Source: Dehalococcoidia bacterium
GTDB lineage: Bacteria > Chloroflexota > Dehalococcoidia > Lucifugimonadales > Lucifugimonadaceae
Assembly: GCA_965220275.1 (NCBI GenBank)
Contig: CBDCPN010000019.1
Location: 89,036 to 153,035, forward strand
DNA: 64,000 nucleotides
Direction of reading: 5' to 3'
Each line of letters begins with the position of its first letter. Within the stretch, counting starts at the first letter, position 1. Below are positions 19,631 to 42,271 of this stretch, in pieces. Position numbers and translations under genes: made by a program. The notes under the pieces were generated by a model. The model did no database searches. It was not told the DNA's origin and worked only from the letters and a program-made list of their open reading frames with translations.

Positions 19631-20779
19631 ATGGTCGAGTGGCTTGGGATTGAGCACCTGTTCGAGCTTTCCACGGGAGATAAGGTCGCCGCCCTATTCA
19701 CCCCCCTCATAATCTTCATCGCCCTCTCGATCGCGACGGTGCTCCTGCCCGGCAAGTGGGTCCCCGGATACGCCACCGACGAAAGAACCGGCGAGCCCCG
19801 CAGGTACCGGCTCAACGGCCTCCTCGTCTTCGTCATCGCCAATCTCATCTGGGGCTTCGAGGTCATCCCAGGTCTGGGGCGCGATTGGTTCTACCGCACT
19901 TCGCTCTACGCAGTCGCCGGCGGCACCGGCTTCGCAGTGCTCTTCACGGCCATCGCCGTCTACACCCAGCCGAAGACCAGGGACCGCAACCCCTTTGTCG
20001 ACTTCTACGTGGGCCGCGTCCAGGAGATCCGCTTCTTCAACGACCGCCTCGACCTCAAGATGACCTTTTACGTTGTGGGCAGCACGATGCTCGGCATCAA
20101 TGCCATGTCGGGCGCGGCCTGGCACTACGAGCAGTTCAGCCCCACCAACGAAGTCAACCCCGGCGTCTTCGTCTACGCCGCCATTTTCACCTTCTACGTG
20201 TTCGACGACCACATCTTCGAGCGCGTCCGGCTCTACACCTATGACCTCATCCACGAGCGGATGGGCTTCAAGATGTTCTGGGGCGACAACATCGCCTACG
20301 GCTGGCTCTACATCCTCCCCCTGTACGGCATGGCCGCCTACCCCGACCCCGGCTTCTCGACCGCCTGGACCTACGTCTGGATCATCGGCGCCTCCGCCCT
20401 GTTCCTTGTCGGATGGGGCATAGCCCGGGGCGCCAACATCCAGAAGTACACCTTCAAGCGCTGGCCTGAACGCAAGTTCCTCGGGATCATCGAGCCCCGC
20501 TACATCCAGGCCGGCGACCGCAAGATCCTGACCAGCGGTTTCTGGGGCGTCGCCCGCCACTTCAACTACATGGGCGAGTTCCTCTTCGCCGTGGCGGTGG
20601 GCCTCTCCTTCGGATATTTTGGCGTCGCCTGGTCGTGGGCCTACCTGGCCTTCGCCGTCTGGTTGTTCACCTCGCGCCAGCGGCAGGACGACGTGGCCTG
20701 CGCCGAGAAGTACGGCCAGGAGAAGTGGGCCGAGTACCAGGAGAAGGTGCCGTACCGCATCATCCCCGGCATCTATTGA
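19631..20779 (+). CDS. ERG4/ERG24-family sterol reductase homologue (polytopic membrane NADPH reductase)
   Basis: 382-aa multi-TM protein. The C-terminus SGFWGVARHFNYMGEFLF ... SRQRQDDVACAEKYGQEKWAEYQEKVPYRIIPGIY matches the sterol reductase signature (..R..RD...C..KYG..W..Y...VPYR..P.IY), with a one-residue insertion. Confidence 0.8.
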   Translation: MVEWLGIEHLFELSTGDKVAALFTPLIIFIALSIATVLLPGKWVPGYATDERTGEPRRYRLNGLLVFVIANLIWGFEVIPGLGRDWFYRTSLYAVAGGTGFAVLFTAIAVYTQPKTRDRNPFVDFYVGRVQEIRFFNDRLDLKMTFYVVGSTMLGINAMSGAAWHYEQFSPTNEVNPGVFVYAAIFTFYVFDDHIFERVRLYTYDLIHERMGFKMFWGDNIAYGWLYILPLYGMAAYPDPGFSTAWTYVWIIGASALFLVGWGIARGANIQKYTFKRWPERKFLGIIEPRYIQAGDRKILTSGFWGVARHFNYMGEFLFAVAVGLSFGYFGVAWSWAYLAFAVWLFTSRQRQDDVACAEKYGQEKWAEYQEKVPYRIIPGIY

Positions 20780-21204: not shown

Positions 21205-22191
21205 CTACGCGCAAGCCGGGTCGTCGGCAGACCAGCGGTTGTAAGCGGGATCGTTTTCGCGGGCTAATCGCTCACGGGCCTGCCTCCAATCCTCTGCCCA
21301 CGCTTCGGCGTTGTGAAGCTCCGACTCCGGGTGTTCCCTGCTACGCGCAACGAACCCGGGGAATGCCGCTCTGCCTGTGTGTTGGCCAACGGGGTTGTAT
21401 CGCAGGTCCAGGCTCCACCTGATCCGGTTGCTGTTGTTCGGCAGCGAACCGTGACAGGTCAGCCGGTGCATAAATAGCGCGCTCCCTCGTCGCATCGGCA
21501 CTGGAATTGCGTCTCGGATTCGGAAGAGTTCATCCGGTATTTGCAGTCCGGACGGGGAGGTCGCCGTCCCTCCCGGGCAATGCTGGAACAGCCCTTCGGC
21601 GTGGCTTCGCGGCACCAGGTGGAGGCAACCGGCTTCCTCGTCAGCATCCCAGACGGGAATCCAGACCGTCAGTATGTCGGTATCGTCCGCCTCCTCAGTC
21701 ACGACTCCCCCGTCCTGGTGCCACGGCGTCGCGCCCAACTGGACTCCGCCTGTCTCAGGATTCACTGGGGTGAGCGCCTCGGGCGGCTTGAGACGTACGT
21801 GTTGCGTCGGGTTCGAGTAGATCTCAGGCCCGATGATCGACTCCACCGCGTCCAACAATGGCGAGGCGGTCAGGACGTCGAACACCGCCGGCCCATGCCA
21901 CATCGGGGTGTTGTACATGACGTTCCTTTGAGGCAAAGAAAAGTCGAAGTACTGGGCGTGCACCTTGCCGCTTTCCTGGTAGATCCTGGTCAGGCGCTCT
22001 CCGAACTCCATCCCATCGTACGTCGATGCGATCGCACCTTCTTCGAGTAACTCACAGGCAAGGTTATCCAGTACTTTTCCGTATTCCGCCTCAAGCGGAT
22101 CGAGAACCTCGTCAGGGTCGATCACGTCTTCGACCACCACGTAACCTTCCCGCTGAAAATGGTTCAGTTGTTCATCATTGAGCCGTGTCAT
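21205..22191 (-). CDS. Phytanoyl-CoA dioxygenase (PhyH)-family Fe(II)/2-oxoglutarate oxygenase
   Basis: N-terminal LNDEQLNHFQREGYVVVEDV, the WHQDG facial-triad HxD, and a distal His in CHGSLPN. Transcribed divergently from the PKS. Confidence 0.85.
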   Translation of the reverse strand: MTRLNDEQLNHFQREGYVVVEDVIDPDEVLDPLEAEYGKVLDNLACELLEEGAIASTYDGMEFGERLTRIYQESGKVHAQYFDFSLPQRNVMYNTPMWHGPAVFDVLTASPLLDAVESIIGPEIYSNPTQHVRLKPPEALTPVNPETGGVQLGATPWHQDGGVVTEEADDTDILTVWIPVWDADEEAGCLHLVPRSHAEGLFQHCPGGTATSPSGLQIPDELFRIRDAIPVPMRRGSALFMHRLTCHGSLPNNSNRIRWSLDLRYNPVGQHTGRAAFPGFVARSREHPESELHNAEAWAEDWRQARERLARENDPAYNRWSADDPACA

Positions 22192-33172: not shown

Positions 33173-33883
33173 GTGTCCGCAGACACCGCCGGGTGCTGGT
33201 GGAGCCCGTTCAGGACGGTTGGCAACGCCACCGTCATACATGTTGATCTGAACCGTCACGCCGCCCGTGAATCACAGGGCGTGGCGTGGTTGGACGACGA
33301 AGAAGTCTCCCGGTCGCGGCTTTTCAGGCATGCTGGCGCGCGGCGCCAGTTCGTGTTGTGCCGCGCCGCGCTGCGCGCCATACTCTGCGGCAAACTCGGC
33401 TGCAAAAACGACCGGCTCTCGTTCGGCCTAACCGGCCACGGCAAGCCTTTCGCCGTGGTCCGGGGGAGCAAGGCGCCGGTCAGTTTCAGTGTGAGTCACA
33501 GCGGCAAGCACGGGCTGATCGCTATTGCGCCGGGAGGGCGACTCGGCGTGGATGTCGAAGAGCCCGTCGCCCGTCGCGATTTGGACGGGCTGATTGCAAC
33601 TCTGTTTGGGCCCGATGAACGTGCGGAACTGGATGCGTTAAGCGGAGAAAGTAAACTCCGCCTGTTTTTGGATTACTGGACAATCAAAGAGGCTCTGATC
33701 AAGGCGCTGGGTACCGGCCACAGAGTGGACGTGTCCAAGTTCCAGGTACCTGCAAAAATGCGGGATCGGGACCCGATCGGCATTTTCCGGTTCTCGCACT
33801 TACCAGACGTTCCCTGGCGAGTAGAGAATCTCGGCAATGAAGACTTCGCCGCTGCACTTGCCGTTGAAGTAAAACCTGTATGA
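33173..33883 (+). CDS. Sfp-type 4'-phosphopantetheinyl transferase
   Basis: Motifs GKPF, FSVSHSG, GVDVE and WTIKEALIKALG. The start codon (GTG at 33173) is uncertain. Confidence 0.85.
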   Translation: MSADTAGCWWSPFRTVGNATVIHVDLNRHAARESQGVAWLDDEEVSRSRLFRHAGARRQFVLCRAALRAILCGKLGCKNDRLSFGLTGHGKPFAVVRGSKAPVSFSVSHSGKHGLIAIAPGGRLGVDVEEPVARRDLDGLIATLFGPDERAELDALSGESKLRLFLDYWTIKEALIKALGTGHRVDVSKFQVPAKMRDRDPIGIFRFSHLPDVPWRVENLGNEDFAAALAVEVKPV

Positions 33884-33899: not shown

Positions 33900-34856
33900 A
33901 TGAGTCGGCAGTCTCCTTCCCGCGTCGCAAGGAAGATCAGCAAATTCTCCATGTCTCTAGACCCCGCTTGGGAACTGCCCAAGCCTCTTTCCACGCATGA
34001 CGTTCAGGTGGACGACGACACCGTCATCGTCCTGAGGCGCCACGGCAATCCGGACGGCCCGCGACTCGTCATGAGCCACGGAAACGGCCTTGCGATCGAC
34101 CTCTATTACCCCTTCTGGTCCAGGTTGACCGGCGAATTCGACCTGATTGTCTACGACCAACGAAACCATGGCTGGAACGAACTGAGCATGCTCGAAAACC
34201 ACAACGTCCCCACCCTGGTCGCCGATCATGACGCCGTTCTCGAAGCAATAGACGACAAATACGGCCTGAAGCCTCAAGTTGGGGTTTTCCACTCTGTATC
34301 CGCCCTGGTGTCGCTCCTGTCGCCTGTTCGGGGAGTTCACTACTCTGCCCTCGTACTGTTCGACCCCCCTCTTTGCAAGCCCGGAAGAAGCCACAAGGAG
34401 TTCGAGGCCGCGGCCGTTCGCGCCGCGGGGTTCGCTCGCAACAGGACCGAGAAATTCCGAAGCAGGGAGCAGTTTTCTGACTTTCTTCCGTTCCTGCCTC
34501 CCTTCCAACGCTTTGCGCCCGGCGTCTTTGAACTCATGGCCGGTACGACGCTTCGTGAGCGCAACGGCGAACAAGGCTACGAACTGCGTTGCCCCGCCGC
34601 GTACGAAGCTCAGATGATCGACTACGCCAGCGTCTTCGGAGTGGCGGTGAACTTCGACACGCTGACGTGCCCGGTGAAGGTAATCGGAGCCGATCCCACC
34701 CTGCCCTATTCGTATCTACCTACGCTGGATATGACTGACATCCTGAGCGTGAACTACGATTTTCTGCCCGAAGCGACTCACTTTCTCCAACTCGAGAGGC
34801 CGGAAGCGTGCGCGGAGGTTATGCGGGAGTTCCTCAACCGGATCGAGTTCGGTTGA
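33900..34856 (+). CDS. Alpha/beta-fold hydrolase (candidate chain-release or acyl-transfer enzyme)
   Basis: An HGNG oxyanion-type motif early in the protein. The nucleophile-elbow region is VFHSVSA (atypical: Ser retained, flanking Gly residues not). The C-terminal EATHFLQLERPE is typical of the fold. Confidence 0.7.
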   Translation: MSRQSPSRVARKISKFSMSLDPAWELPKPLSTHDVQVDDDTVIVLRRHGNPDGPRLVMSHGNGLAIDLYYPFWSRLTGEFDLIVYDQRNHGWNELSMLENHNVPTLVADHDAVLEAIDDKYGLKPQVGVFHSVSALVSLLSPVRGVHYSALVLFDPPLCKPGRSHKEFEAAAVRAAGFARNRTEKFRSREQFSDFLPFLPPFQRFAPGVFELMAGTTLRERNGEQGYELRCPAAYEAQMIDYASVFGVAVNFDTLTCPVKVIGADPTLPYSYLPTLDMTDILSVNYDFLPEATHFLQLERPEACAEVMREFLNRIEFG

Positions 34857-34916: not shown

Positions 34917-36344
34917 GTGAATAACGCCAGCGAATTTTTTGGGGATTCGTGGTCAATGGCAACCGGCCGGAAAAAGACGAAGTTGCGCCGCATAGCCATA
35001 GTTGGAGGCGGCATTTCCGGGTTGGGGGCGGCATGGGCTATGAACCGGCACCCGGACCGTTTTGACTTCCGCCTGTATGAGGCCCAGTCTCGAATCGGCG
35101 GGAACGCAGTAACGGCGGATATGCCGCAAGATGACGGCTCTTCAATCCCGTTCGACATTTCCGTCACCGCCTGCATCCCATCCGTATATCACCACATCCT
35201 CCTCCTGATGCAGCGGTACGGCATCGATCTGGTCGACACCAGGTTCAGCTACAGCGTGAAGTACCGCGGCCAGGTATACGCCCACGACTTCGACTCTGAG
35301 ATCAGGGAACAGCTACAACCAGAGATCGCAAAGTTCCAGCGGATCTTGAAACGCCTGCACTGGTTCGGCGCTCTGAGCCGGTCCCGGTCAAAGTGCGTGA
35401 ACGCCCTCAACCCGCTCAACTACGTGAGCATGGGCACCGTCCTGAACCTCGCAGGACTATCCGGGGATTTTCGCTACAAGGTGCTGAAGCCCATGTTCGT
35501 CAATTTCCTGATGGCGACCAATGTGTTCGACATGCCGGCCGCCCTTTTCGCCAGGTATCTCGAATTCTTCGACATTGAGACCGCCACGACGATGCACACC
35601 TGGGACAGGGGAACACGGAACATCTACGAACACTTGTCCGCCGACTTCAGGGACAAGATATACCTCAACCGTCCTGTACGAAAAGTGTATCGACGGCCTT
35701 TCGGGGTTGAGATCGAAGACGAAAATGGCGTTAAGGAAACCTATGACGACGTGATATTTGCGTGTAACGCAAATCAGACCTTGATGATCCTGGACAAGCC
35801 CACGTTATTGGAGCGATACACACTCTCCTCGGTCCGTTATGAAAGTGAACTACACAACCACACGCTTGTTCACTGGGACTCGTCAGTACTGCCGGATAAC
35901 GAAGTGAGGCCGTTGGAAACGCGTAGCAATCACATAGAACAATACGGCGTGAGACCAGACAACTATGAAATCACCTACATCATGCACAACCAGCAGCCAT
36001 GGGTCAGCCGGTCAGACAAGCCGTGCCTGGTAACTTACAACCCCATAAGTGAGATAGATCGCGGAAAAGTCGTCGGGAGGTGGTGGTTCCAACACATCGT
36101 GCATGACGTTCGCCATGTCGCACTGCTGATTCCTATGTTCCGGTTCATCCAGGGCAAGCGCCGGACCTGGCACTGCGGCGCTCACACGCTGGTCAACAGC
36201 CAGGAGACATGTTTCGTAAGCGGGCTCGCAGCAGCGAAGCAGATCGGCGCTGATTATCCGTTCGAAGACCCCGAGGCGAGGCGGTCCTTCAACTACTACG
36301 GGGGCATCATGTTTGGGTGGCGCTTCAAAAAGGCCAAGGGCTGA
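34917..36344 (+). CDS. FAD/NAD(P)-binding oxidoreductase, amine-oxidase/phytoene-desaturase-like (COG2907 type)
   Basis: RIAIVGGGISGLGAAWAM...YEAQSRIGGN dinucleotide-binding motif. 475 aa. The start may instead be the ATG at 34956. Confidence 0.75.
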   Translation: MNNASEFFGDSWSMATGRKKTKLRRIAIVGGGISGLGAAWAMNRHPDRFDFRLYEAQSRIGGNAVTADMPQDDGSSIPFDISVTACIPSVYHHILLLMQRYGIDLVDTRFSYSVKYRGQVYAHDFDSEIREQLQPEIAKFQRILKRLHWFGALSRSRSKCVNALNPLNYVSMGTVLNLAGLSGDFRYKVLKPMFVNFLMATNVFDMPAALFARYLEFFDIETATTMHTWDRGTRNIYEHLSADFRDKIYLNRPVRKVYRRPFGVEIEDENGVKETYDDVIFACNANQTLMILDKPTLLERYTLSSVRYESELHNHTLVHWDSSVLPDNEVRPLETRSNHIEQYGVRPDNYEITYIMHNQQPWVSRSDKPCLVTYNPISEIDRGKVVGRWWFQHIVHDVRHVALLIPMFRFIQGKRRTWHCGAHTLVNSQETCFVSGLAAAKQIGADYPFEDPEARRSFNYYGGIMFGWRFKKAKG

Positions 36345-36613: not shown

Positions 36614-38668
36614 TTGGCCAGGCGCGGAGAGATGGCACTTTCAACACTTCCAACAACCGATGCGCCAGATGAGTCAACCCATCAGCTGAGCCTGCCAGAA
36701 GAACTCATCCTTTCGCTCCTCAACGAGGAGAGCGGCTACTTCCACCAGGTGCCTGGCTGGAATTTGAACTGCGCCGTCATCGGCGCCGTCCTTGCGGAAC
36801 TCTCGCTTAGGTCGCACATAGACACGGACATGGAGGCCCTTTTCCTCCTGAACCGGACGGAAACGGGTGATCCAGCACTGGATCCTATCCTCGCCGAAAT
36901 CACGAGCGGTCCTGCTCGGCGTAACGCCCAATTCTGGATCGAAAAGCTTGCCCCCCATGCTGAGTCGATCATTGATTTGACTTTGCAGCGGTTAGTAGAC
37001 CTTAACGTTCTGGAATATCACGACGGCGATTTCTACACGCTGGCACGCGGCGCCGGGCAGTTGGGACCGCCAGACGGCTCCCAACCGGGCGCCGGCGCAG
37101 AGTTTGTCAAGACGCGGATCAGCAGGGCCATTTTCGAGAACGAGATCCCTCACCCTCGCGACGTAATCATCATCTGCCTGATCAACACATGCGATGTGTT
37201 TCGGTTTATGTTCCAACTGGACGAAGAATCTGAGGAACGCATCGAGTTCATTTGCAAGATGGACCTGATCGGCCGGTCGATCGCCGCCGCTGTCGCCGAA
37301 AACCTCGCCGGTCCGTTGCTTCGACATTCGGCATTGTCTAAAGAAATTCCGGCTGTCTCCCTGCGCAAGTTGGCGCTCCATCCACATATACGCAGCGGCA
37401 ACGTTCCCGCGCTGTTCGCGGACCTCGCGCATGAGTACGGACCGGTGTTCCAGGTCCGTCCACCTTTTGCCAAGCCCATGATCATCCTGGCCGGGTTGGA
37501 GACCAATCGCTGGGTGCACCGGCGAGGGCGCATGTACCTGAGAACCAGGGACTATTTTGCTGACTTCGAAGCTGTCTACGGTGCGTCGGGGGTTTTGCCA
37601 TCCCTGGACGGCGCCGATCACTTCCGCCTCCGTAAGTCTCTGGGACCGGCCTACTCGCGGGGGCGGCTCGAAGGGCAATTGGACCAACTCTACGCCCAAT
37701 TCCGCGGACATGTCGCCGACTGGAAGGTTGGCGACAACTTAAATGCGACCAGCATGTGCAGGCAGATTGTCAATGCTCAGCTTTCGCCGCTCTTCATCAG
37801 CGTGGATTCTCAGGACATCTTCGAAGACCTGACGAAGTACAAGGAACGGGCGCTCAGCACGCACGTATTGAAGATCCTGCCCAAATTCATGCTCAAGACC
37901 CCGGGCATGAGACGCCGCGCGAAGTCGATCGATACATTGCTTGAACGCGTCCAGAACGTCCACACGTCCGCCCAACGTTCCGAAACAAGTCGTGACCTGG
38001 CGGACGACTTGCTGAGCCTGCACGCGAGCGATCCGCAATTCGTTCCCGAGTCGAATTTGCGATTCGCGCTTTCGGCCGCGCTGATCGCCAGCGTGTACCT
38101 CGGCGACGCCCTCAGCTTCGCGGTGTACGCGATGGCGGCGCAGCCTGAGATCTACCGCAAGATCCAGGATGAAGCTGACGCCCTGTTCGACAACGGAGAT
38201 CCGGCCGGCAATGACTTCAAACCTGCCAATATTGACGTCACGCACCGCTTTCTCATAGAGACCTTGCGGATGTACCCGATCGTCCCGATGTCCGTCCGGA
38301 ACGTGATGAATTCTTGCGTGGTTGAGGGCTACGAAATACCCGTCGGATCGCGGATCTTCATCGCCCAATCCGCTTCACATTACATGGACGATATCTTCCC
38401 TGACCCCCACACGTTTGATATCGACCGCTATCTGCCGCCGCGCAATGAGCACCTCAGCCCGGGATATGCGCCGTACGGGCTTGGCACCCACATGTGCCTC
38501 GGCTCCCGGTGGATGCAACTGCAAATGGCCATCAACGTACTCATGCTCGCCCACTATTTCAATGTCGAAGTCAGCCCTTCAAACTACAAGCTCAAGATCA
38601 ATCCAATACCGTCCATGAAACCGAGCAAGAAGCTGAGGTTCCGCATCGCGGAGCGGAGACGGAATTAG
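36614..38668 (+). CDS. Fusion protein: N-terminal GPP34/GOLPH3-like domain plus C-terminal cytochrome P450
   Basis: N-terminal part: LSLPEELILSLLNEESG, AVIGAVLAELSLRS and TGDPALDP match the bacterial GPP34 family pattern. C-terminal part: ExxR (ETLR), PDPHTFDIDRY, and heme loop PYGLGTHMCLG (Cys codon 38495-38497). The start is uncertain (TTG at 36614 or ATG at 36632). Confidence 0.85.
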   Translation: MARRGEMALSTLPTTDAPDESTHQLSLPEELILSLLNEESGYFHQVPGWNLNCAVIGAVLAELSLRSHIDTDMEALFLLNRTETGDPALDPILAEITSGPARRNAQFWIEKLAPHAESIIDLTLQRLVDLNVLEYHDGDFYTLARGAGQLGPPDGSQPGAGAEFVKTRISRAIFENEIPHPRDVIIICLINTCDVFRFMFQLDEESEERIEFICKMDLIGRSIAAAVAENLAGPLLRHSALSKEIPAVSLRKLALHPHIRSGNVPALFADLAHEYGPVFQVRPPFAKPMIILAGLETNRWVHRRGRMYLRTRDYFADFEAVYGASGVLPSLDGADHFRLRKSLGPAYSRGRLEGQLDQLYAQFRGHVADWKVGDNLNATSMCRQIVNAQLSPLFISVDSQDIFEDLTKYKERALSTHVLKILPKFMLKTPGMRRRAKSIDTLLERVQNVHTSAQRSETSRDLADDLLSLHASDPQFVPESNLRFALSAALIASVYLGDALSFAVYAMAAQPEIYRKIQDEADALFDNGDPAGNDFKPANIDVTHRFLIETLRMYPIVPMSVRNVMNSCVVEGYEIPVGSRIFIAQSASHYMDDIFPDPHTFDIDRYLPPRNEHLSPGYAPYGLGTHMCLGSRWMQLQMAINVLMLAHYFNVEVSPSNYKLKINPIPSMKPSKKLRFRIAERRRN
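36686..37300 (+). other. GPP34/GOLPH3-like domain of the P450 fusion (approximate borders)
   Basis: See the parent CDS. The pattern LPEEL.L..L.eesG ... GAVLAELsLr ... TGDP.LD ... W is the hallmark of GPP34-family proteins. Confidence 0.7.
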
Positions 38669-38711: not shown

Positions 38712-39749
38712 CTAATGGGGCTTGCGGGCCAGGAAACAATATAACGGCGTGAAGACCCCGGCCCTGCCGCCCGCAACATAGGCGTTGGCGGTACGGTCCA
38801 GCAATCTGACAACGTCTGCGGAGCCATTAGGGAACACCCCCAGTTTTTCGGCCAGCCTGGTCGCGCCAATGATCGCCTTGCGGCCCAGCGGAATCCTGCG
38901 AAGTGCGTTGCCCAGCGTTCCGTGCCTGGTCTCCATGGGCTGGTACCACGGCGTGGTCGGGCCGTTCTCCCCTATCGCCCGGTCAATCCCCTCGATCACC
39001 TCAAATCCCACCGATTCGAGCGCCCGGTTCACCTCGCCCGTTGTCGCAATGTCCTTGAGGGCGATGCCTTGCATCAGATCACGCTTGATGACGCGGTGCC
39101 GGTTATCGTCGGGATCGAACTTGTCCGTCATGCACATTTCCTGACCCCAGAAGAGGGCTCCCGGTTTCAGCACGCGGTAGATTTCGGCAAACGCTGCCAT
39201 CTTGTCCGGTGCATGGCAAGTCGATTCGATCGCGTAACCCCTGTCGAACGTGTCGTCCGTGACGGCGTCCATGTCCGTGAAGCTGCACGCGAGGTAATCG
39301 ATCATGTGGTCGAGCCCCGCTTCGGCATTCAACGATTTCGCCTTTTCCAGCTGGACTTCACTGTTGTTTACCCCGACGACCCTGACACCGGACTCTCGGG
39401 CCACACGACGCATCGGGCCACCGATCCCGCATCCGACGTCCACTACTGTCATGCCCTTCCGCAACTCCAGCTTGCCGATCATCAGCCGCTGATGCCGAAT
39501 CTTGGATTCTGCCAGGGTCTCCCCGGGCGATAACGGCGCAAAGTGCAGGGACTCGCCCCAACCGAACACCATGAAATCGCTGCAGAGGTCGTAATACTCC
39601 TTGACGGTTTCGGTGTGGTCATAGCCTCTCGCACCACCATCTTCCGCGGACGCTCTCTCTATCCAACCGTCGTATCGTTGGACTCGACCGGAAACGTCCG
39701 ACCCGCGGTATGCGGCCTTCAGGCCGTTGTACAGTTCACGAATTTGCAT
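38712..39749 (-). CDS. Sterol 24-C-methyltransferase (ERG6/SMT)-like SAM-dependent methyltransferase
   Basis: Aligns by eye along its whole length with yeast ERG6. EYYDLCSDFMVFGWGESLHF matches FYEYGWGSSFHF. VVDVGCGIGGP matches LDVGCGVGGP. YAIESTCHAP matches YAIEATCHAP. The C-terminal tail is VAGGRAGVFTPLYCFLARKP. Confidence 0.85.
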   Translation of the reverse strand: MQIRELYNGLKAAYRGSDVSGRVQRYDGWIERASAEDGGARGYDHTETVKEYYDLCSDFMVFGWGESLHFAPLSPGETLAESKIRHQRLMIGKLELRKGMTVVDVGCGIGGPMRRVARESGVRVVGVNNSEVQLEKAKSLNAEAGLDHMIDYLACSFTDMDAVTDDTFDRGYAIESTCHAPDKMAAFAEIYRVLKPGALFWGQEMCMTDKFDPDDNRHRVIKRDLMQGIALKDIATTGEVNRALESVGFEVIEGIDRAIGENGPTTPWYQPMETRHGTLGNALRRIPLGRKAIIGATRLAEKLGVFPNGSADVVRLLDRTANAYVAGGRAGVFTPLYCFLARKPH

Positions 39750-39989: not shown

Positions 39990-41063
39990 TCACGCCGTCC
40001 CGTTGGCGTCGCTACGGCCTGGACCATCCCCAATCCGGGGGTCAGGATAAAACTGCGTGCAATAGGCGCGGAAGGGCATGATCTCGCCATCGGAACGGCA
40101 CAGACGCGGACGGGACTCGTAGCGCTTGCTGCGCCAGATAATCTCATCCTGCAGGACATCTGCCTTTTGCATGATTGAGATGAACTTGTTCATCACGGGC
40201 GCGCGTAGCCCGACTGGCAGAAACCCCAACCCTGCTACCCACCGTCTGGGTCCCCGTATCTCCTTGACCTGCGAGACCAGGTTCATGTCGATGAGTGTGC
40301 CATCGACGGGCGTCGCCAGGACCCATAGGCGCATGTCCATCCCGATGGACCGCTCCCTGATCTCTACGAACGAGTAGCCAAGGCCATGGATATGGGCGGT
40401 GGCTGCGACGTCAAAAGTGAGCGACGCAATTTTAGCGATCTTCTGCGTTCTTCTGAAATTGAAGCTGCTCAGGAGGTAGGCGCCGTCCACCGACACTTCA
40501 CTATCCCGGTCCACGCTGTCGTAGCCGTGGACGTAGCGCAAATGGCCCACGTCCACCGAGTTTTCTGTCGTCTCCTGGGGATGTCCCGGAAAGCGGAGAG
40601 TTTTGATCTCGATGTCGCACCACCCCTCCTGGTCGGGAGGGTCTTCCGGCAGGTCCCACTGCGGCTCCCTGCCGTCCATCCCCCACCAGGCAAAGATGAG
40701 ACCGCCAATTTCCCGCGTCGGGAAAACCCTCAACCTCGCTGTCCTGGGCGGTTCGGAGTAAGGCGTGGCGACGCACTGGCCAACCGTGTCGAACTCGTAG
40801 CCGTGGAAGGGACAGACGAGCCGGCCCTGGCATACCTTGCCGCCCGCGTCCGGCCCCATGTCGGCGCCCAGGTGCGGGCAATAGGCCCCGGCCACGCAGA
40901 CTTTTCCGCCATCGTCGATCCAGATGACGGTGTTTTCGCCCATCCAGGTCTTCTGCATGAGCTTGGCCTTCAACAAAGCCTTTCGGCTTTCGACGAAGAA
41001 CCAGCCCTCTGGAAACGGGGATAACGTCTTTGCGTACGTAAATGTCCTACGTCCCGTGGACAT
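39990..41063 (-). CDS. Rieske [2Fe-2S] non-heme-iron oxygenase, KshA/Neverland-like
   Basis: Rieske motif CPHLGADM-x-CPFHGYEF and mononuclear iron motif ENSVDVGHLRYVH (EN..D..H....H). 357 aa. No partner reductase or ferredoxin is adjacent. Confidence 0.85.
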   Translation of the reverse strand: MSTGRRTFTYAKTLSPFPEGWFFVESRKALLKAKLMQKTWMGENTVIWIDDGGKVCVAGAYCPHLGADMGPDAGGKVCQGRLVCPFHGYEFDTVGQCVATPYSEPPRTARLRVFPTREIGGLIFAWWGMDGREPQWDLPEDPPDQEGWCDIEIKTLRFPGHPQETTENSVDVGHLRYVHGYDSVDRDSEVSVDGAYLLSSFNFRRTQKIAKIASLTFDVAATAHIHGLGYSFVEIRERSIGMDMRLWVLATPVDGTLIDMNLVSQVKEIRGPRRWVAGLGFLPVGLRAPVMNKFISIMQKADVLQDEIIWRSKRYESRPRLCRSDGEIMPFRAYCTQFYPDPRIGDGPGRSDANGTA

Positions 41064-41428: not shown

Positions 41429-42271
41429 ATGAATTCGTCGCGAAGACCCGTCGCCGTTGTGGTGGGAGCAACGTCGAAGTGGCAGTCAGACGGGCGTAAC
41501 ACGCACATGATCCACGGCAAGACGCTCGACGATAGCGAACTGCCCGTCGGGGTGCGTTGGGGCGTTGGAGGCGCCGTCGCCCTGAAGTTTGCGTCACAGG
41601 GCTTCTTCACGGTTCTAACCACCCGCAAGGCGTCAAACGCCTCCGCGCTGGCCGAGGGCATACGGCAACAGGGCGGCGAAAGCATGATCGTCGAGATGGA
41701 CCTGGCGTCACGGGACTCCATATCAAATGCGTTCGCCGGGATACGGGAACAGGTCGGCGATCCGCACGCGCTGGTCTACAACGCCGGCTATCTGGAGGGG
41801 CGGGACCTCCCGCCGGAGAAGGAACTGCTGGAGCACATCCCGTACGAAATGTTTGAAACCGCGCACCACATCTCCAGCAGCGGACCGTTCCTGGTAGCCA
41901 AGGAAGTCTTGCCCGCGATGCGGGAGCGGGGAGAAGGCTCCTTCCTGATTTCGAACAACGCGTGGTCTTTGCGTGGCAAGAAGCGGTACACCGGCGAGTC
42001 GTTCTATTACCCGCGGGTGATGATGCGGACGTTGGCACAAGTGTTGACGGAGGAGTACTCCGAGCACGGCGTGCACGTTGCAAATGTGGTTATAGACGGC
42101 ACCATCGATTCACCGGGGACACGAGCCCTCCCGCGATTCCAGGAGCGCCCCGAGTTGCTCATTAATCCCGCCCAAATAGCCGAAGCCTTCTACTATCTCC
42201 ACACGCAGGACAAGTCCTGCTGGACGCACGAAATCCAGTTGACCCCATATTCCACGAAACCCAGTGTCTAG
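41429..42271 (+). CDS. Atypical SDR-like NAD(P)-dependent oxidoreductase
   Basis: Rossmann start VAVVVGATSKW, then an insertion of about 27 aa before GVGGAVALKFA. The region aligned to the catalytic Y-x3-K reads FYYPRVMMR, with no Lys. Transcribed divergently from the Rieske oxygenase gene. Confidence 0.65.
   Translation: MNSSRRPVAVVVGATSKWQSDGRNTHMIHGKTLDDSELPVGVRWGVGGAVALKFASQGFFTVLTTRKASNASALAEGIRQQGGESMIVEMDLASRDSISNAFAGIREQVGDPHALVYNAGYLEGRDLPPEKELLEHIPYEMFETAHHISSSGPFLVAKEVLPAMRERGEGSFLISNNAWSLRGKKRYTGESFYYPRVMMRTLAQVLTEEYSEHGVHVANVVIDGTIDSPGTRALPRFQERPELLINPAQIAEAFYYLHTQDKSCWTHEIQLTPYSTKPSV

Follow-up and report, generated by a model that had tools for sequence, protein, structure and literature searches.

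What would a bacterium do with a cytochrome P450 that carries, within the same polypeptide, a domain of the GPP34 (GOLPH3/Vps74-like) family? The question is raised by a gene on the plus strand of a 64,000-nucleotide stretch of contig CBDCPN010000019.1 from a Dehalococcoidia bacterium, the whole of which is referred to here as the window. We find that the protein joins the two domains and retains an intact heme site, that its P450 has lost the acid-alcohol pair of the I-helix as a derived change, that the gene lies among sterol-modifying genes in most related loci, and that its GPP34 domain has lost the arginines with which GOLPH3 binds phosphatidylinositol 4-phosphate (PI4P). Taken as a whole, the reading of this protein as a cytoplasmic sterol-tailoring P450 with GPP34 as an adaptor domain is in our judgment moderately probable; considerably less confidence attaches to any specific reaction or to any detail of the adaptor role. 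The architecture itself has already been published, and what looks new is the sterol synteny, the loss of the oxygen-activating residues and the missing lipid-binding arginines.

The open reading frame (ORF) at 36614..38668 is uninterrupted and would encode 684 amino acids if the TTG at 36614 were its start. The start is probably the ATG at 36632, because this codon is preceded by GGAG and yields a product that exactly matches a 678-residue database protein (P0001); homologs of the fusion are about 675 residues long. Residue numbers below are those of the 678-residue protein, and positions of Pfam domains are those of the 684-residue ORF. A scan against Pfam-A placed GPP34 (PF05719) at residues 27-229, covering profile positions 1-200 of 201 (E 7.7e-24, 85.3 bits against a cut-off of 29.1), and p450 (PF00067) at residues 259-665 (E 1.6e-37, 129.8 bits against a cut-off of 23). 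Both scores lie well over the cut-offs and bear out the in-frame fusion proposed in the initial annotation, which had been made from the sequence alone. A single ORF joins a full-length GPP34 domain to a complete heme-thiolate P450, and the fusion is genuine. The ExxR motif and the heme loop quoted in that annotation were confirmed by translation as ETLR and PYGLGTHMCLG, and the PERF-like motif was found as FDIDRY; all three are conserved, the P450 core being intact. Within the heme loop, G616, L617, G618, H620, C622, L623 and G624 are invariant among 70 homologs.

The strongest clue to function is the conserved neighborhood of sterol genes, which the functional reading in the initial annotation missed. 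We compared 84 loci with up to 10 kb of flanking sequence on each side of the fusion gene. A Rieske/KshA_C gene is present within this distance in 71 loci, a sterol C-24 methyltransferase (SMT) in 63, usually about 55 bp from the stop codon of the fusion gene, a transporter of the MMPL/Patched/sterol-sensing type in 55, and a flavoenzyme resembling LkcE in 39. At least one of the four accompanies the fusion gene in 78 of the 84 loci and all four do so in 27 (50% identity threshold), and no other neighbor family reached a comparable frequency when all neighboring ORFs were clustered de novo, all against all. In the window the stop codons of the SMT and the fusion gene are 43 bp apart, and the Rieske oxygenase has the steroid 9-alpha-hydroxylase KshA as its best match in the Protein Data Bank (PDB; E 2e-20). 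The flavoenzyme directly upstream best matches LkcE (E 7e-26) and 2b9w, a Propionibacterium fatty-acid isomerase. Contexts labelled with Pfam in contigs of Nitrospira, Dehalococcoidia and 'Deltaproteobacteria' agree with the synteny counts. In the Nitrospira locus the genes bordering the module include ERG24, a second P450, a second SMT and a fusion of squalene epoxidase to oxidosqualene cyclase (SE-OSC).

One of these loci, contig LXNJ01000389 from the sponge Petrosia ficiformis (L094), carries the SMT, flavoenzyme, GPP34-P450, MMPL and Rieske genes together. The SMT of this contig was among those assayed by Brown et al. 2023 (PMC10070321), who found methylation of desmosterol with 8 of their 10 symbiont SMTs. 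The Aplysina scaffold JGIcombinedJ30088_10000835, which encodes a propylating SMT, was not recovered in our metagenome scan; the gene order of three loci (L033, L086 and L089) matches that of this scaffold. Across phyla the neighbors in the module are 56-92% identical, and on the strength of this sequence similarity we suggest that the sterol module moves horizontally, as has been argued for the core sterol cluster by Kelly et al. 2022 (PMC9531527). Our loci thus resemble the sponge-symbiont sterol clusters of these two papers in the organisms, the SMT genes, the evidence of horizontal transfer and the assayed contig LXNJ01000389. They differ in that the papers list ERG1, ERG7, ERG11, ERG24 and ERG6 with sdmA and sdmB, and name none of GPP34, this P450, a KshA-like Rieske protein or MMPL as parts of a module. 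Neither GPP34 nor a description of this P450 appears in either paper, the term 'P450' occurring once in Kelly et al., in a reference title; in the literature searched, no paper joins the topics of GPP34-P450 proteins and sterol genes. The Rieske gene was also considered as an orthologue of SdmA and rejected, since it reaches only 32 bits with the NCBIfam SdmA model, whose cut-off is 600, and has KshA as its best PDB match; genuine sdmA homologs of sponge clusters share 44-47% identity with Methylococcus MCA1016.

Two further observations concern the surroundings of the module. In Chloroflexota, a lipoprotein of the LppX_LprAFG family and a major facilitator superfamily (MFS) transporter recur near it in 16-17 loci (for example L024 18307-19095, minus strand, and L080 15743-17221, minus strand). 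These resemble the mycobacterial LprG/P55 lipid-export pair, which hints that the product of the module is moved to the cell surface. In the Nitrospira sponge metagenome-assembled genome (MAG), squalene epoxidase and oxidosqualene cyclase form a single 1156-residue fusion protein (L001 13995-17465, minus strand) that adjoins a CYP51-like P450 and ERG24, which fits the tables of Brown et al., where ERG1 and ERG7 have their hits in one and the same gene.

We also examined the relationship of the P450 domain to solved structures. By sequence, the nearest are Methylococcus CYP51 (E 8e-24), CYP184A1 and taxadiene hydroxylase/CYP725A4, and Foldseek with a full-length AlphaFold2 (AF2) model returned the same set at 17-22% identity; these closest structures are all P450s of sterols, terpenoids or fatty acids. 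CYP51, including the CYP51-ferredoxin fusion of Methylococcus capsulatus (PDB 6mcw, 7jj1, 7snm), is the best PDB match by sequence and among the top structural matches, and it shares with the window protein a sterol context and the fusion of a bacterial P450 to an accessory domain; some distant relatives of the window P450 even have a CYP51-like AGxHT I-helix. By the nomenclature rule, membership in CYP51 calls for at least 40% identity to CYP51 members, whereas the window P450 is about 21% identical, has Y-L in the I-helix where CYP51 has H-T, and is fused to a domain that, unlike ferredoxin, carries no redox cofactor. The clusters L001 and L033 moreover contain true CYP51 or CYP51-like genes of their own. 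An identity with CYP51 was rejected on these grounds, and the window P450 constitutes a separate P450 family.

The I-helix segment ALIASVYLGD departs from the consensus of oxygen-activating P450s. Within it A483, L484, A486, S487, Y489, L490, G491 and D492 are invariant among the 70 homologs. HMMER pairs ASVYLG with AGHHTS of CYP51, giving a register in which A-G-x-D-T corresponds to A486-S487-V488-Y489-L490; the pattern (A/G)Gx(D/E)T is absent, with Y489 at the position of the acid and L490 at that of the alcohol. The initial annotation had aligned IASVYL with the consensus by eye and concluded that the acid-alcohol pair was missing. Alignments to CYP51, CYP184A1 and 99 relatives uphold the absence of the pair and correct the register by one residue. 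These 99 full-length relatives were drawn from a search with the P450 domain of 1.84 billion representative proteins, and their I-helices sort by distance. Whether fused or not, nearly all relatives at no more than 37% identity have AG(L/I/M)DT or, occasionally, AGxHT; P0130 and P0132, at 39% and 43% identity, are intermediates with AGHYT; and the window clade, together with the other relatives as distant as about 41% identity, has A(S/A)(V/I)Y(L/I/V)G. The I-helix of the window clade is also one residue shorter than that of the AGxDT relatives. Because AGxDT prevails among the distant relatives (37% identity and below), these alignments indicate that the acid-alcohol pair has truly been lost and that its loss is evolutionarily derived, with Y489 in place of Asp and L490 in place of Thr.

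Other P450s that do without the Asp/Glu-Thr pair are the allene oxide synthase CYP74, the isomerases CYP8A1 and CYP5A1, the CYP152 peroxygenases and EryF. The window P450 shares this trait and has neither the heme-loop insertion of CYP74 nor the Arg-Pro of CYP152, and no sequence kinship with these enzymes was detected. By analogy, the likeness may serve as a lead to the chemistry; it is not a family assignment.

Analysis of the GPP34 domain supports its kinship with GOLPH3 and Vps74. A profile built on the domain retrieved GOLPH3 (3kn1, E 3e-7) and Vps74 (2zii, E 1.4e-4) from the PDB, and hhalign aligned it to GOLPH3 with a probability of 94.5%; a profile was needed, as phmmer with the domain alone found nothing in the PDB. 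A domain-only AF2 model was weak (pLDDT 43), and with it GOLPH3/Vps74 structures were the sole Foldseek matches below E 0.1, three of them at E 2e-3 or less. The domain is securely a true GOLPH3/Vps74 homologue, with the same helical core and beta-hairpin (PDB 3kn1, 2zih). The PI4P pocket of GOLPH3, according to structural work of 2009, is formed by W81, R90, R171 and R174. Two independent alignments (HMMER and hhalign) place I50, E111 and I114 opposite R90, R171 and R174, respectively, so that three of the four residues are replaced, and hhalign places an invariant tryptophan, W43, opposite W81. Among 42 representatives of the fused family, the equivalent of R90 is never Arg or Lys and that of R171 is mostly Asp or Glu. 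The bacterial domain further differs from GOLPH3/Vps74 in having no WNPLKLHYQL insert, in being covalently fused to its presumed client enzyme in the absence of any Golgi/COPI context, and in its charge: it is strongly acidic (net charge -18, pI about 4.4; median -19.5 over 70 homologs), whereas the GOLPH3 core is slightly basic (+2, pI 8.3). The net charge of the P450 domain is +8. Because the arginines are replaced and the domain is so acidic, its sequence makes canonical binding of PI4P or other anionic lipids unlikely. We also considered an iron-sulfur or redox role, on the basis of the ferredoxin-like acidity and of three cysteines (C47, C187 and C208) that are invariant in the clade. This was rejected because the cysteines are not consistently conserved beyond the clade, C187 and C208 not being kept in divergent fused relatives, nor C47 and C208 in the stand-alone GPP34 protein.

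The missing PI4P site and the acidity undermine both the published view of the P450-fused, long form as a host-directed effector, which is taken up below, and the proposal of the initial annotation that the domain might be a peripheral membrane anchor, which would bind PI4P or another anionic headgroup and so stand in for the transmembrane helix at the N-terminus of eukaryotic P450s. Tethering of the enzyme would be favored if its sterol substrate is embedded in the membrane, the aromatic beta-hairpin is conserved (F134, W/Y135, L137), and neither a signal peptide nor a transmembrane segment was found anywhere in the fusion protein by sequence analysis with direct reading of the N-terminus. 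Set against this, the headgroup-binding arginines are gone and anionic bacterial membranes should repel a domain with a net charge of -18, and we consider a headgroup anchor rather unlikely.

The data are better accommodated by a sterol-tailoring role. The protein would be a cytoplasmic, heme-competent P450 whose gene marks a small module common to many phyla with unusually high sequence identity, consisting of an SMT and a KshA-like Rieske oxygenase and often also of an MMPL/sterol-sensing-type transporter and an LkcE-like flavoenzyme. Its substrate would be a sterol, derived from the host or made by the bacterium itself, and its oxidative and non-standard step may cooperate with side-chain methylation; candidate steps are a desaturation, the rearrangement or conversion of a Rieske-oxygenated intermediate, and a substrate-assisted hydroxylation. 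The acidic GPP34 domain would bind no phosphoinositide and would instead hold the enzyme at the membrane-associated sterol machinery. GOLPH3 and Vps74 bind the basic tails of client enzymes, and by analogy the GPP34 domain may be an adaptor of this kind, possibly having this role in common with them. An adaptor for membrane-proximal enzymes would also fit the rare fusions of GPP34 to a Rieske domain and to an ABC ATPase that have been reported from sponge symbionts (PMC11706023). We advance only tentatively, as a possibility with the balance of probability against it, the more specific proposal that GPP34-P450 supplies an overlooked oxidative activity to a mobile pathway by which bacteria tailor sterol side chains in sponges. 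It would do so by non-canonical chemistry and in concert with the adjacent SMT, Rieske oxygenase, flavoenzyme and transporter, with GPP34 as an enzyme adaptor.

A number of points weigh against the sterol-tailoring role. Clustering of the neighboring ORFs revealed no conserved ferredoxin or reductase nearby that would supply the electrons, and no MMPL homologue exceeded the search threshold in this window. Synteny is an association and not proof of a reaction. The divergent fused relatives P0140 and P0124 do not lie beside sterol genes, and the sterol link is therefore valid for this clade rather than for all fused proteins. The quality of the full-length AF2 model is only moderate (pLDDT 67.9), the I-helix having been assigned from sequence alignment. 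Finally, the invariant Y489 and D492 lie one helical turn apart and might form a substitute proton relay, in which case ordinary monooxygenation would be possible; a loss of O2 activation is for this reason unproven.

A second alternative is that the P450 acts on a non-sterol lipid, such as methyl-branched fatty acids or another terpenoid, and that the sterol genes only happen to share a mobile island with it. Directly upstream in the window lie a 3432-residue type I polyketide synthase (PKS), a phosphopantetheinyl transferase and a hydrolase. This PKS resembles 'Sup', a PKS found throughout sponge symbionts and believed to produce methyl-branched fatty acids. CYP184A1, one of the top structural matches, was crystallized with oleic acid, the relatives of the flavoenzyme include a fatty-acid isomerase, and the divergent relative P0124 adjoins an RND efflux system rather than sterol genes. 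Adjacency of the PKS accessory genes to the module is, however, confined to this window and three related loci, and a functional link to the Sup-like PKS was rejected for this reason, whereas the SMT, Rieske and MMPL neighbors are conserved across phyla and the closest resemblance of the Rieske partner is to a steroid hydroxylase. A non-sterol substrate thus appears unlikely.

A third alternative comes from the paper in which the architecture was described. The fusion, of which the initial annotation knew no example, had been named GPP34_L by Ferreira et al. (2025, Microbiome 13:4, PMC11706023), who counted 656 proteins that are monophyletic and exclusive to sponge symbionts, and who had found the GPP34 family to be enriched in sponge symbionts and absent in free-living sister lineages. 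The window gene is a member of GPP34_L, having GPP34 and P450 in one polypeptide and relatives from sponge-associated bacteria; architecture (about 675 residues), habitat signal and cross-phylum spread are the same. The search for this architecture that the initial annotation had called for found it widely, with more than 120 database proteins of 72-100% identity carrying the same two Pfam domains, and with 577 relatives in GTDB species-representative genomes (one genome per species) from at least 8 phyla. The best 80 of these 577 loci are from MAGs throughout, the majority from Dehalococcoidia/Chloroflexota and others from Nitrospirales, Binatia, Latescibacterota, Thermodesulfobacteriota, Gemmatimonadota, Opitutia and Rhodothermaceae. 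The nearest of them is from a Dehalococcoidia MAG (87% identity), and the window most likely stems from a symbiont of that class. The MAGs of the relatives bear bin names from sponge studies (SB06xx, APA, RHO1, COS), and the metagenome matches with an identifiable source are from the sponges Aplysina aerophoba (Ga0209021) and Petrosia ficiformis (LXNJ01), as assigned from the supplementary tables of Brown et al. 2023 (PMC10070321).

Ferreira et al. propose that GPP34 proteins, including the P450-fused form, are secreted effectors that bind PI4P on the host phagosome and block its maturation. The strong enrichment in sponge symbionts and the absence from free-living sister lineages (PMC11706023) are in keeping with such a role, as are the genuine homology to GOLPH3/Vps74 and the pairing of the invariant W43 with W81. 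Their paper leaves the P450 active site and the gene flanks of GPP34_L unexamined and is silent on sterols and methyltransferases, whereas we find sterol-gene flanks, a non-canonical I-helix and an acidic domain in which the PI4P arginines have become Ile, Glu and Ile, with no basic residue at the first of these positions in any representative. The fusion protein has no signal peptide, its heme enzyme requires cytoplasmic electron donors, and the gene is tightly syntenic with sterol enzymes and a membrane transporter in the 78 loci noted above. We regard an effector role of the fused form as quite improbable. Lastly, there is practically no chance that the fusion is an artefact of a frameshift or assembly join between two genes, which the initial annotation had named as the finding that would overturn it at 37300-37360, since the junction (37280-37400) translates open and in frame, the linker residues are invariant or nearly so in an alignment of 70 homologs, and the architecture recurs in hundreds of independent assemblies, closed chromosomes included.

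Several divergent architectures were observed among the relatives. The GPP34-P450 protein P0140 (L099 8001-10067; L100 3237-5303) is encoded on a TARA metagenome scaffold, and its P450 is 37% identical to that of the window and has an AGLDT I-helix; contrary to the publication, the architecture may thus occur outside sponge symbionts as well. P0196 (872 residues) has two tandem GPP34 domains followed by the P450, and P0259 has a P450 followed by two cyclic-nucleotide-binding domains, as apparently does P0260 by its sequence. On a 'Deltaproteobacteria' contig, a stand-alone GPP34 protein of 207 residues (L004 12901-13524, plus strand) is encoded about 900 bp downstream of GPP34-P450 and is 32% identical to the fused domain, so both forms can share one locus.

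GPP34_L is among the few gene families reported to be specific to sponge symbionts across many phyla, and its sole published interpretation, as a PI4P-binding phagosome effector, rests on residues that we find not to be conserved here. Taken together, the synteny with sterol genes, the derived state of the I-helix and the loss of the PI4P site in an acidic domain offer a concrete, testable alternative, and a module of four or five genes lends itself to heterologous reconstitution. The module links work on symbiosis factors with work on bacterial sterol alkylation, which bears on the reliability of 24-isopropylcholestane as an animal biomarker; were the sterol-tailoring role correct, further enzymes would enter the debate on bacterial contributions to sponge sterol biomarkers. 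If the chemistry is indeed unusual, the proteins would represent a new family of sterol-modifying P450s. If bacterial GPP34 domains are adaptors for enzymes of lipid metabolism and not PI4P sensors, the origin of the GOLPH3 family would appear in a new light, as would the symbiosis-factor hypothesis.

Table 1. Features of the window discussed in the text, with positions counted from the first nucleotide of the window.
Feature	Position	Strand	Evidence
GPP34-P450 fusion gene, 678 aa	36632..38668	+	ORF, P0001, ATG with GGAG, Pfam
GPP34 (GOLPH3/Vps74-like) domain, acidic	36692..37300	+	Pfam PF05719, PDB profile, hhalign, weak-model Foldseek
Conserved in-frame interdomain linker	37301..37387	+	Translation, 70-homolog alignment
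Cytochrome P450 domain, basic	37388..38608	+	Pfam PF00067, PDB sequence search, Foldseek
I-helix segment ALIASVYLGD	38078..38107	+	Translation, alignments to CYP51/CYP184A1 and 99 family representatives
K-helix ExxR motif ETLR	38258..38269	+	Translation; E543 and R546 invariant
Heme-binding loop PYGLGTHMCLG with Cys ligand	38471..38503	+	Translation, conservation
FAD amine-oxidase-family enzyme (LkcE-like/fatty-acid-isomerase-like), directly upstream	34917..36344	+	Pfam, PDB
Sterol C-24 methyltransferase, convergent with fusion gene	38712..39749	-	Pfam CMAS and Sterol_MT_C
Rieske [2Fe-2S] oxygenase, KshA-type catalytic domain	39990..41063	-	Pfam Rieske and KshA_C
Short-chain dehydrogenase	41429..42271	+	Pfam
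ERG4/ERG24-family sterol reductase, 16 kb upstream	19631..20779	+	Pfam PF01222, E 2.5e-37
PhyH-family dioxygenase	21205-22191	-	Pfam
Type I PKS, 3432 aa	22507-32805	+	KS-AT-DH-cMT-ER-KR-ACP then second KS-AT
Phosphopantetheinyl transferase, after PKS	33173-33883	+	
Alpha/beta hydrolase, after phosphopantetheinyl transferase	33900-34856	+	

The remaining genes of the window (Table 1) are less closely tied to the fusion gene. It is doubtful that the short-chain dehydrogenase belongs to the module, such a gene being linked to it only in three related loci, L006, L007 and L047. The ERG4/ERG24 reductase has homologs no more than 10 kb from the fusion gene in 12 further loci; in the window, the reductase and the PhyH dioxygenase sit between ordinary metabolic genes and the PKS. 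Both modules of the PKS gave matches to a CurL-like KS-associated linker.

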